A DNA stretch of 63,202 bases, counting the filler, from Globobulimina sp. (taxonomy: Eukaryota), in NCBI GenBank assembly GCA_003354225.1. It is 56 parts of 56 records of this genome, joined end to end, with 100 filler letters (N's around TTAATTAATTAA, not from the genome) between each part and the next. Parts side by side here need not be neighbours in the genome. Positions count along the whole stretch, not along the records: positions 5,656 to 6,686 come from PIVH01025325.1; 55 more parts are not named here. One strand, given 5' to 3'. The position numbers were made by a program, and so were the translations under genes. Below are positions 5,656 to 16,627 of the stretch, piece by piece; the first letter of the stretch is position 1, and every line of letters begins with the position of its first letter. The notes below the pieces were generated by a model that saw only the letters and a list, made by a program, of their open reading frames with translations, was not told where the DNA came from and made no database searches.

Positions 5656-6142
5656 TTACGAATTCAACACTATATTCATCTTTAATCTTCTCTCCCCGCG
5701 GATAAACCATGGCAAGGAGCGGCATACCCCATGTGCGTGCTTCATAGCTGACTTTTCCAAAATCATTCAGCATGATTTTTTCATCACCGTCTCCGATGTT
5801 GATATGAATGGATACAGCATCCGCACCAAGCTTTATCGCTTCTTCAACCGAGCATACAAGTGTTTTTGCATGGGGAAAGGGTGACAGACTTGTTGAGCCG
5901 GACAGATGAACGATGAGCCCGATATCTTTGCCGTGTCCGCTATGGCCTGACCCTCTGAGGCCCTTGTGCTCCGCAATGGCGTTTGCGCCTCCTTCGGGAA
6001 CATTGTTCACCGCCTTTTTCATATCAATAACACCTTCGATAGGTCCCACGGAAATACCGTGATCCATTGGAACGATAACTGCTCTTCCTGTATTTCTGTT
6101 AATAATACGTTCCATTCTGATCTGTTTCCCAATAATTGTCAT
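5656..6142 (-). CDS. aroA': 2-amino-3,7-dideoxy-D-threo-hept-6-ulosonate (ADH) synthase, DhnA-type class I aldolase, bacterial; 3'-truncated
   Basis: [75 protein letters not shown] upstream; the aromatic-rich leader favours ADHS over FBP aldolase. Confidence 0.85.
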
Positions 6143-6169
6143 GCGGAGTTCCTCCTTTGGTATTTGACG

Positions 6170-6210
6170 AAAAAAGGCCGTGAAACATAGTCGTTCTCAC
6201 GGCCTTTTTT
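6170..6210 (-). terminator. Intrinsic terminator 2 (segments 5:6) just upstream of aroA'
   Basis: AAAAAA-GGCCGUGA-loop-UCACGGCC-UUUUUU on the minus-strand transcript. Confidence 0.85.
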
Positions 6211-6216
6211 GAACAT

Positions 6217-6253
6217 AAAAAAACCGTGAGTTTTCTTGTCTACCCACGGCTTT
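6217..6253 (-). terminator. Attenuator terminator 1 (segments 3:4)
   Basis: AAAG-CCGUGGGU-loop-ACUCACGG-U7 on the minus-strand transcript. Confidence 0.8.
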
Positions 6254-6278
6254 CCTCGCTAATTATGTTGGTTTGATT

Positions 6279-6365
6279 TCAGCGCAGCCCAGGCAGACCC
6301 ATACTAAAATAATAGTAATAATACCTGGAAAATATAAAGTGTCTGCCTGAAAATCGGGCCATCAT
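6279..6365 (-). CDS. Putative Tyr/Phe-rich attenuator leader peptide (28 aa)
   Basis: MMARFSGRHFIFSRYYYYYFSMGLPGLR, with 5 consecutive Tyr and 4 Phe codons; AAGGA SD-like sequence upstream; precedes terminators and an aromatic biosynthesis gene. Confidence 0.8.
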   Translation of the reverse strand: MMARFSGRHFIFSRYYYYYFSMGLPGLR

Positions 6366-6788
6366 GAAATAGTCCTTGTCAAAATTCGTTATTGGCTTCT
6401 TTGTTCGTTCGATGCTAAAGTCAATCTCGCCGTTTTCATCCATACCACCGCCATTGAACCAATACATTAGGAGTGATATTCCCCATTTTTCATCGCTAGT
6501 AGAGGACTTAAATTTATTTTGTAACCAATCACCAACTATTTCATGTCCAAATGAGAATAAACATGGGCGAAGAAATATTCGATTAAAACTTGCATCATGT
6601 AAATCTATGGCTGCTTGTAACATTGGAGCCATTAGATTTATATCAAAGTTGTCATATAAATACAATAAATCAGCAACAAAACACTANNNNNNNNNNNNNN
6701 NNNNNNNNNNNNNNNNNNNNNNNNNNNNNNTTAATTAATTAANNNNNNNNNNNNNNNNNNNNNNNNNNNNNNNNNNNNNNNNNNNNAA

Positions 6789-14233: not shown

Positions 14234-14913
14234 GGTAGAAAAAGTGAAATAACAAAAAATGGAAATCTTTATAGCTCAGAAAGAAACCACTGAACGAACT
14301 GAGACAACTGATCCAGTTTCTGAAAACAATCTACCATAGGTATCGCATATGTATCCCATATGAATCTCAGATGTATTTTGATATATCGAGATATATATGG
14401 GATAAATATGGAATATCTCAACACCATTATTTAAATCAATATTACGGATATACAGAGGTGTTCCGGATAAGATGTAATTTAGGATCACATGTTGCCATGT
14501 TTCAAATGTATTACTCACTATGAATATTTTAAATGTTTGGAAAAACTTCAAAAAACCTTCAAAACTCACCCTTTTCTACACAATTAATCCTCCCTATTTT
14601 CGCNNNNNNNNNNNNNNNNNNNNNNNNNNNNNNNNNNNNNNNNNNNNTTAATTAATTAANNNNNNNNNNNNNNNNNNNNNNNNNNNNNNNNNNNNNNNNN
14701 NNNATTAACGATAGTATTCGATGAGGGTTATGTACCGTTTTACCGGCTGCCCAGAATATGACCTGATGGACAACGGTTCACAACTCTAATTCGCACTCAT
14801 CCATAGTTTATTAGAATAGAAAAACAGGTAATATATATATAAATAAAACAAGAAGATAATAAGAAGAGCAATGAACAAAAACAAGTCTAAGTCGAAATAT
14901 ACAAGCGGCTAAA

Positions 14914-15411: not shown

Positions 15412-16627
15412 AACGGGAGAAGACGGAGGGGCGTTGCCGAGACCGACCGAGGCTTTTGACTTATGTCCTAAAAAAAACGGGTATTAATAACGCGTACGTC
15501 GAATTGGAGGAAAAAAAAACCTACCACGAACGACTTTACTGCAATCGCTAAAACTCTGCTTAGCAGCCAAGAAGCGGGAAAATTTGGTGCACTAAAATAA
15601 CAATCGAGTCATACGTATATATGTAAAAAATGCTATAATTGTACCATTTCGCAAGTGCAATCCCGAAAGGCGCAGGCGTGATCCACACCTTTGCCGATAT
15701 CCAGACTATGAATGCGGCACAGTTCGCAGAAGCCNNNNNNNNNNNNNNNNNNNNNNNNNNNNNNNNNNNNNNNNNNNNTTAATTAATTAANNNNNNNNNN
15801 NNNNNNNNNNNNNNNNNNNNNNNNNNNNNNNNNNAATTAGCATAATACACATTTGCACAACAATATGCAAATTTATATAAAAAGCGACAACTGTGTAATC
15901 TACGATATGTAAATATCGTCACCCCCGACAACAAAAGAATCGGAAAGTGACAAAAACAATAAATTAGTTTTTACAATACAATAATATAATCTACCATAAC
16001 TAACAGGAATTTAAAATATCATGGAATTAAAAGAAAAACCCATAAAATTGGGAAAAGAAAATTCCTAAGTTTAGAAAGAAAAAACCATAATAAATGGAAA
16101 AAGAAAACTAATACTAATTTTTAGAATTTAAAGAAAAACCCATAATAATGGGAAAAGAAATTTCTAATATAGAAAAGAAAAACCACATAATAATAACAAT
16201 AAAATATAATAATAATAATATTGTCTAATTCTAAATACATAATATAAATTAATATAAAAAATAATATAAAATAATTTTTGAACTTTTCGTTTTCCGGTCA
16301 GGACCTCCGCCACCAAAAGGTGTTGATTCCCATTGGATTTGAGTAGTTTGAGTGTCAACAGGGGTGCCTTATCGAAACCGTTTAGCCCCCGTTTTTCGCA
16401 GAGTTGTGAGGACACATTGTGCTGTTGTGGATGGCTAACTGGACCAACGGAGGGTGCCATATTGTGTTGTTTTAGATGTATTGCCGGAATGAGTGTGGTA
16501 GTCAAGTTTTGCTGTGGCTGATTTGCGGCAAGAACTGACTGTCTGATTGGCGGAAACTGTACCGCTGGCTGTGAGACCGGCGGAAACTGAACCGCTGAAT
16601 ACGTAGGAGGCGGATAAACGACCTCTG

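Follow-up and report, generated by a model that had tools for sequence, protein, structure and literature searches.

A predicted leader-peptide attenuator upstream of an ADH synthase operon for aromatic amino acid synthesis

The DNA analyzed here (the window, a stretch of 63,202 nucleotides from the Globobulimina sp. assembly GCA_003354225.1) carries on contig PIVH01025325.1 a leader upstream of aroA', the gene for 2-amino-3,7-dideoxy-D-threo-hept-6-ulosonate (ADH) synthase. Judged from its sequence, this leader is very probably a ribosome-mediated leader-peptide transcription attenuator of an aromatic amino acid operon with aroA' as its first gene, and it most likely switches aroA' on when aromatic amino acids run short. 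The open reading frame (ORF), five helices, their conservation and covariation, the identities of the genes, and the match between leader codons and operon were computed from the window and from related genomes. The leader represents an uncatalogued family of a textbook mechanism.

Leader ORF, alternative helices, and downstream gene

The leader comprises, in this order, a Shine-Dalgarno (SD)-like site, a 28-codon ORF, segments 1 to 6, two hairpins each with a U-tract, and the SD and ATG of aroA'. The features are listed by window coordinates and strand.

6373..6377, minus: SD-like AAGGA of the leader ORF, ending 7 nucleotides (nt) before the ATG (from sequence)
6279..6365, minus: leader ORF, 28 codons plus TGA, peptide MMARFSGRHFIFSRYYYYYFSMGLPGLR (ATG at 6365, TGA at 6281-6279)
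6306..6338, minus: regulatory codons F10 to F20 (F, F, YYYYY, F), inside the loop of helix 1:2 (Tyr run 6323-6309)
6341..6349, minus: segment 1 (CAGGCAGAC), 5' arm of the protector helix 1:2 (9/9 pairs with segment 2)
6290..6298, minus: segment 2 (GUCUGCCUG), partner of segment 1 or segment 3 (from pairing and folding)
6257..6284, minus: hairpin Pa, CGCUGA (6284-6279) with UUAGCG (6262-6257), at the tip of helix 2:3, holding the leader stop codon (from folding)
6238..6245, minus: core of segment 3 (GGGUAGAC), end of the T1 5' arm and start of its loop, complementary to segment 2 (from pairing)
6217..6255, minus: predicted terminator T1 (helix 3:4), a 13-bp hairpin followed by U7, -16.2 kcal/mol (from folding)
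6195..6230, minus: helix 4:5, the T1 3' arm and U-tract with the A-tract and T2 5' arm, 14 bp, -17.3 kcal/mol (from folding)
6170..6210, minus: predicted terminator T2 (helix 5:6), A6, a 10-bp G+C-rich hairpin, and U6, -21.6 kcal/mol (from folding)
6149..6158, minus: SD of aroA' (AAAGGAGGAA), 11 nt after the end of T2 (from sequence)
5656..6142, minus: aroA' (ADH synthase), first 162 codons, cut by the contig end (ATG at 6142; from profile matches)
6399..6686, no strand assigned: 5' part of the contig, a probable chimeric join and the source of the in-frame extension of a 128-amino-acid (128-aa) ORF (from homology and a contig of sequencing run X1)

Nine of the 28 leader residues are aromatic, namely, five Tyr (YYYYY) and four Phe. 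The ORF with these residues and its AAGGA site, named earlier from the window alone (the original prediction), was found in the sequence at these minus-strand positions, as was helix 1:2 around the Tyr run, with all nine pairs between 6349-6341 and 6298-6290. In the alternative helix 2:3, GUCUGCCU.GGCU pairs with AGCC..GGGUAGAC and encloses the inner hairpin Pa. The GC hairpin with seven U's that had also been reported is present as T1 at 6255-6217; the second terminator, T2 at 6210-6170, had been missed. The five helices are of similar stability (1:2, -18.5; 2:3, -20.9; 3:4, -16.2; 4:5, -17.3; and 5:6, -21.6 kcal/mol), and the fold of the 196-nt leader reached -70.1 kcal/mol compared to -42.6 ± 3.95 kcal/mol in 200 shuffles (z = -6.95), none of which was as good.

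The protein read from aroA' in the window scored 212.6 bits on TIGR01949 (cut-off 299.45) and 232.7 bits on NF005556; it ends after 162 of about 265 residues, and only because of this truncation does it fall below the TIGR01949 cut-off. It is 89% identical to the protein of the closest relative, locus L001, and the scanned full-length relatives reached 360 to 392 bits on TIGR01949, above 299.45. For the protein of locus L065, the best solved match was MJ0400 (2qjg), an ADH synthase, with 328.6 bits compared to 151.7 bits for the class I fructose-bisphosphate (FBP) aldolase 1ojx. The gene following aroA' encodes 3-dehydroquinate (DHQ) synthase II (aroB'; 497.5 bits in L065 and 500.9 bits in L004, cut-off 392). 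The third gene in both loci encodes chorismate mutase/prephenate dehydratase (pheA), followed in L004 by the shikimate dehydrogenase gene aroE. The scores of the relatives, the MJ0400 match, and the DHQ synthase II neighbor bear out the earlier assignment of the downstream gene to ADH synthase and do not support an FBP aldolase. On the best reading of the gene order in relatives, the leader would control an aroA'-aroB'-pheA-aroE operon, which is invisible in the window because the contig end (5656) falls inside aroA'.

The window consists of 56 contigs of 1029 to 1031 bases each, placed in length order and connected by linkers of the form N44-TTAATTAATTAA-N44, with a mean G+C content of 35% (26 to 49% across contigs). 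As the contigs were joined artificially, gene neighborhood across the linkers is meaningless. The attenuator sits on a 1031-base contig (window 5656-6686, 41% G+C), with all of its coordinates on the minus strand.

In the window the leader frame is open from 6665 to 6279, which gives the 128-aa ORF that had been described as hiding the leader. It is extremely unlikely that the aromatic stretch is the C terminus of a real 128-aa protein encoded there and that the hairpins are the ordinary tandem terminators of its gene. The 100-aa extension matched no Pfam or NCBIfam family and had no homolog among proteins of 55 to 175 aa, the range searched. Similarity to L001 (85.6% over 714 nt) begins only at window position 6385, 20 nt before the leader ATG, and the window sequence upstream of 6385 matched the upstream region of no relative. 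In relatives the leader is free-standing, 15 to 34 codons long, and often located behind a TTGACA promoter. A 272-nt contig of sequencing run X1 is identical to 6253-6398 and then continues for 126 nt with a different sequence, which in reverse complement contains TTGACA, a 17-nt spacer, and TAATA, and resembles the promoter of L001. Run X1 possibly represents the source sample, so that its contig is independent of the assembler only and not of the data. No contig spanning 6399-6686 was found in four sequencing runs, a gap that was given no weight. The 128-aa ORF was rejected as a real gene on the missing family, the missing homolog of 55 to 175 aa, the break in similarity, and the X1 contig. 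Because the sequence has no similarity to relatives and the X1 contig diverges past 6398, the contig end 6399-6686 is probably a chimeric join and the 128-aa ORF an assembly artifact. The open frame of the original prediction is thus present in the window, with its 5' part probably derived from this join.

Conservation among relatives and sister leaders

One genome per species was scanned for related loci, and the best 80 of 350, with 75 to 89% identity and belonging to Desulfobacterales and allies, were kept; the carriers include the cultured species Desulfonema magnum (L065) and Desulfosudis oleivorans (L013 and L018). The original prediction implied aromatic-rich upstream ORFs and covarying helices in front of homologs, and both were found. 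In 72 of the 80 loci, the 700 nt upstream of the same gene contained an ORF of 15 to 34 codons in which 6 or more residues in 10 (mostly 8 to 10) were aromatic. Among the remaining eight, six had less than 200 nt of upstream sequence, L057 had a weaker leader (5 in 10), and L061 had none. The window sequence was aligned with 71 loci, L080 being omitted for its different candidate located 404 nt upstream. The same order of parts was kept throughout the alignment: segment 1, the aromatic run, GGUCUGCC, the stop codon, T1 with its GGCAGAC loop, and T2. The mean length of the 72 aligned leaders is 26.3 codons, of which 5.0 are for Tyr, 3.6 for Phe, and 0.74 for Trp. Trp codons occur in 46 of them and are absent from the window leader and from its closest relative, L001. 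Judged by these codons, the family is predicted to sense Tyr, Phe, and Trp together, and the window copy and L001 only Tyr and Phe.

In the terminated state (helix 1:2, Pa, T1, and T2), 82.8% of the alignment cells were paired in the 72 leaders compared to 32 to 46% with slid partners, and both sides changed in 27 of the 36 pairs compared to 16.7 ± 2.0 in shuffles, none of 500 reaching 27. Pairing amounted to 83.2% of cells in helix 1:2, 97.5% in T1 (both sides changed in 8/10 pairs), and 88.4% in T2 (9/10 pairs). For the read-through state, the values were 90.4% in helix 2:3 and 87.0% in helix 4:5. For helices 1:2, 2:3, 3:4, 4:5, and 5:6 alike, duplex energies were better with the partner from the same locus than with permuted partners in every one of 200 permutations; the control pairs 1:3, 2:5, 3:6, and 2:4 showed no advantage of the own partner under permutation. 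T1 was detected in 65 and T2 in 62 of the 72 leaders, some of the T1 misses being an artifact of where the count of U's starts. The motif GUCUGCC lies in frame 1 (Gly-Leu-Pro) in 69 of the 72 close leaders, and among 28 phylum-wide leaders in frame 0 (Val-Cys-Pro) in 13, in frame 1 in 8, and in frame 2 in one. Its retention across reading frames points to a constraint on the RNA and not on the peptide.

A covariance model spanning segment 1 to T1 (R1) had the aroA' leader as its top match in five of five genomes (82.8 to 114.7 bits) and matched at E ≤ 0.001 in 64 of the 151 genomes sampled from the phylum, weaker matches to leaders for other amino acids included. Among the 29 best new phylum-wide loci examined, 28 had an aromatic-rich ORF. 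The gene behind these loci encodes ADH synthase in 14, 3-deoxy-D-arabino-heptulosonate 7-phosphate (DAHP) synthase of type I-beta in 8 and of type I-alpha in one, shikimate kinase in one, and trpE in one, and is unclear in four. As the same leader precedes either ADH or DAHP synthase, it goes with the entry into the pathway, regardless of which enzyme catalyzes that step. The proposed control of the archaeal-type route therefore stands insofar as the leader precedes an ADH synthase gene, and falls as to specificity, because the same type of leader precedes DAHP synthase genes elsewhere in the phylum.

Sister leaders in the same genomes carry other codons. WWWW leaders were located before trpE-like genes (L086:1421-1770 and L088, ~1501), an Ile/Leu/Val-rich leader before an ilvD-like gene (L087, ~1501), and a YWWW leader with tandem terminators (L092, ~1501) before a gene whose product starts MLIVMNKNAT and is presumably DAHP-synthase-like. 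Among the internal controls, this tracking of the operon by codon identity gives the attenuator reading its strongest backing. Together with the 72 of 80 conserved ORFs and the covarying helices, it upholds the trpL/pheL-type attenuator logic of the original prediction.

A ligand- or protein-binding switch (riboswitch, T-box-like, or TRAP-like) in which the ORF is incidental was considered very unlikely. The leader gave a weak full-length match to the Rfam trpB motif RF04312, an orphan riboswitch candidate (26.5 bits, E ~0.1 to 0.3), which is described in the available text of PMC11109978 as a pair of hairpins of which the second is a terminator, the antiterminator lying in the right shoulder of P1. 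The resemblance extends to a shared CAGA...UCUG..GGCU and to the opposition of the P1 right shoulder and the terminator. The score is far under the gathering threshold of 59 bits, the motif occurs in Firmicutes and Fusobacteria with no ORF described in that text, and the leader is not a member; the authors who described the motif did not exclude a classic attenuator for it. Further points speak against a binding switch. Sequence and length of the helix 1:2 loop differ among loci, but codons for Tyr, Phe, or Trp are invariably present in it, in frame with a start and a stop codon; in paralogous leaders the codons shift with the operon to Trp or to Ile/Leu/Val; and a conserved unpaired core, as displayed by ligand pockets, is missing from the alignment. 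As a separate observation, the resemblance covers window 6212-6349 on the minus strand, and the trpB motif might itself be a leader-peptide attenuator, a reading that its authors left open (PMC11109978).

Two complete aromatic leader-plus-terminator units were observed in tandem, in place of a single leader with two terminators, in L107, L119, and L120 (from ~1456, in hit orientation).

Proposed switching and the second terminator

We infer ribosome stalling, the kinetic order of folding, and a relay between the terminators from these structures, as follows. When Tyr- and Phe-tRNA (in most relatives also Trp-tRNA) are charged, the ribosome would reach the stop codon and cover segment 2; in an untranslated leader, segment 1 would keep segment 2 in helix 1:2. 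In either case the free segment 3 would pair with segment 4, T1 would form, and transcription would end before aroA'. When charging is low, the ribosome would stall in the Tyr/Phe run within the loop of helix 1:2 and separate segments 1 and 2. Segment 2 would then capture segment 3 as it is synthesized, so that T1 would lose its 5' arm and the polymerase would read on.

Folding predictions were consistent with this order of events. With the A site at Tyr codons 17 to 19, the minimum free energy (MFE) structure of the RNA 3' of the ribosome was helix 2:3 (-26.0 to -26.3 kcal/mol, about equal to T1), in agreement with the earlier proposal of an alternative helix 2:3 with an inner CGCUGA/UUAGCG stem. 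A ribosome whose A site had advanced to codon 20 or beyond, or to the stop codon, covered segment 2, and the RNA 3' of it folded into T1. In ribosome-free stepwise folding, helix 1:2 formed first, followed by T1 and T2. After segment 5 is made, the MFE structure combined 2:3 and 4:5 (-39.6 kcal/mol).

The freed segment 4 and the U-tract of T1 could in turn pair with the A-tract and the 5' arm of T2 (helix 4:5), which would disable T2 too, and a polymerase leaking past a formed T1 would encounter an intact T2. All 62 of the 62 leaders with T2 keep at least seven of the nine pairs in 4:5. In four loci (L026, L066, L109, and L112), helix 3:4 lacks a U-tract and 5:6 is the sole terminator, so that in these four the leader can control termination only via 4:5. 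Whether one ribosome decision is relayed to two terminators is, on the sequence evidence, about evenly balanced. The fuller proposal was given the same weight, neither favored nor disfavored: a chain of five helices would relay a single decision to both terminators through pairing of the T1 U-tract with the T2 A-tract, giving a very low basal level without lost induction, and the module would remain constant across Desulfobacterota while the first enzyme differs (DAHP synthase or the nonhomologous ADH synthase).

The close spacing of T2, which ends merely 11 nt before the aroA' SD, would suit a leader acting mainly on aroA' translation or mRNA stability, and roles in trans have been reported for a trpL RNA and peptide in Sinorhizobium. 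An action of either kind was judged to have a low probability. Both hairpins are followed by a U-tract, the signature of intrinsic terminators; the aroA' SD lies outside every conserved helix; some relatives have 100 to 300 nt of unrelated sequence between T2 and the SD; and outside the aromatic run the peptide is not conserved across frames. Apart from this, the region between T2 and aroA' contains repetitive insertions, namely, runs of a GGTGTTA-like unit followed by their inverted complement in L065:2830-3000 (Desulfonema magnum) and short palindromes of the type GGGGACAGA...TCTGTCCCC in L058, L063, and L067.

Several observations weigh against the attenuator reading. At least 7 aromatic residues in 10 were reached by 7 of the 1943 short ORFs of the window (three distinct stop sites); such ORFs occur by chance in an AT-rich window, and an aromatic ORF alone is therefore not decisive. 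Of 71 related loci, only 49 have an SD-like tetramer 4 to 16 nt ahead of the leader's start codon, and only 36 a strict -35/-10 pattern upstream of the leader. In the window itself, the promoter is absent or replaced and aroA' is cut by the contig end. Covariation was modest in the switching helices (both sides changed in 5/9 pairs of 1:2 and in 5/10 pairs of 2:3), one pair of helix 1:2 was open in 35 of the 72 sequences, and the shuffle and permutation controls ignore phylogeny. Hairpin Pa was paired in just 53.0% of cells, on which ground it was rejected as a conserved element and treated as optional. The full-length equilibrium fold was always T1 plus T2 (-48.9 kcal/mol compared to about -39.6 kcal/mol for the read-through state), and read-through must therefore be kinetic. 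In the E. coli trp leader, read-through is likewise kinetic. Finally, when only the ribosome footprint was constrained to be unpaired, helix 1:2 and T1 stayed formed, which means that the model must assume that no helix closes around the ribosome.

That a chance aromatic-rich ORF lies in AT-rich DNA beside an unregulated terminator has a negligible probability. The frequency of such ORFs in the window would allow it, and the presence of the ORF in 72 of 80 related and 28 of 29 phylum-wide loci, the covariation of the helices, and the fold z score of -6.95 stand against it. Two further short ORFs of the window with at least 7 aromatic residues in 10 (16121-16240 and 14786-14884, both minus) were taken as AT-rich background.

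Relation to known leaders and significance

The attenuator proposed here resembles the E. coli leaders pheL-pheA and trpL-trpEDCBA in its short ORF with a run of end-product codons, in helices 1:2, 2:3, and 3:4, in a terminator before the first gene, and in the logic of stalling. It differs from them in its mixture of Tyr, Phe, and Trp codons, in having two terminators, in its target, an enzyme that opens the common pathway and does not belong to a terminal branch, and in the position of the regulatory codons, which lie in the 1:2 loop. In the E. coli leaders, these codons lie inside segment 1. The his leader of Salmonella and E. coli folds into the alternatives A:B, C:D, and E:F or B:C and D:E. 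Like it, the leader has more than three mutually exclusive helices that would relay the ribosome position to a distant terminator, with 4:5 as the extra alternative helix between the antiterminator and the last terminator, and L026, L066, L109, and L112 are exactly of this kind. Unlike in the his leader, the middle hairpin 3:4 is in most members itself a predicted terminator, with its U-tract pairing the A-tract before T2.

The mechanism of stalling and read-through in attenuators is summarized in the available text of PMC11802643, which also describes the Corynebacterium glutamicum aroR-aroF leader of Neshat et al. 2014, in which Phe-Tyr-Phe precedes a DAHP synthase operon and the response to Phe limitation is experimental. 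Going by that description, aroR-aroF is the closest characterized system, having mixed aromatic codons before an operon whose first gene encodes the initial enzyme of aromatic synthesis. It belongs to Actinobacteria and has three aromatic codons, compared to runs of 8 to 10 here, and, according to the review, one terminator. Its first gene encodes DAHP synthase as described there, in contrast to the nonhomologous ADH synthase of the window, although DAHP synthase follows the leader in other Desulfobacterota.

A single sentence in the available text of Gurvich et al. (PMC3082878) states that Desulfobacterium autotrophicum may use a pheL. This pheL is probably the same element, since pheA is the third gene of this leader's operon in relatives; the text available gives it no structure, link to aroA', or distribution. 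In a search of the literature on leaders for ADH synthase, DHQ synthase II, DAHP synthase, and Desulfo- taxa, that sentence was the only one retrieved. Seliverstov 2005 (PMC1262725) reported no RNA elements upstream of phenylalanine/tyrosine operons in Actinobacteria, and no relevant text on aromatic leaders or Desulfobacterota was found in PMC545781 (Rodionov 2004), PMC4833913 (Korolev 2016), or PMC2965389 (Naville and Gautheret 2010). Neither the window nor 10 related loci gave a match to an Rfam 15 family at its gathering score; of the Rfam leader families, Phe, Trp, His, and Leu remained unmatched in the window with the limit relaxed to E ≤ 10, and Thr_leader matched on the opposite strand only (18 compared to 55 bits). 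The control of the bacterial ADH synthase/DHQ synthase II route appears to be undescribed.

The leader family is widespread in the phylum (64/151 sampled genomes, leaders for other amino acids included). Rfam 15 contains no such family, so that many genomes of sulfate reducers would be better annotated with a model of it. If they work as proposed, the two linked terminators would be an elegant means of tight attenuation. From regulation alone, the leader supports an aromatic biosynthetic role of these aldolase-family genes over one as FBP aldolases, and it would provide a simple regulatory signal for the alternative ADH synthase/DHQ synthase II entry into aromatic synthesis in bacteria.

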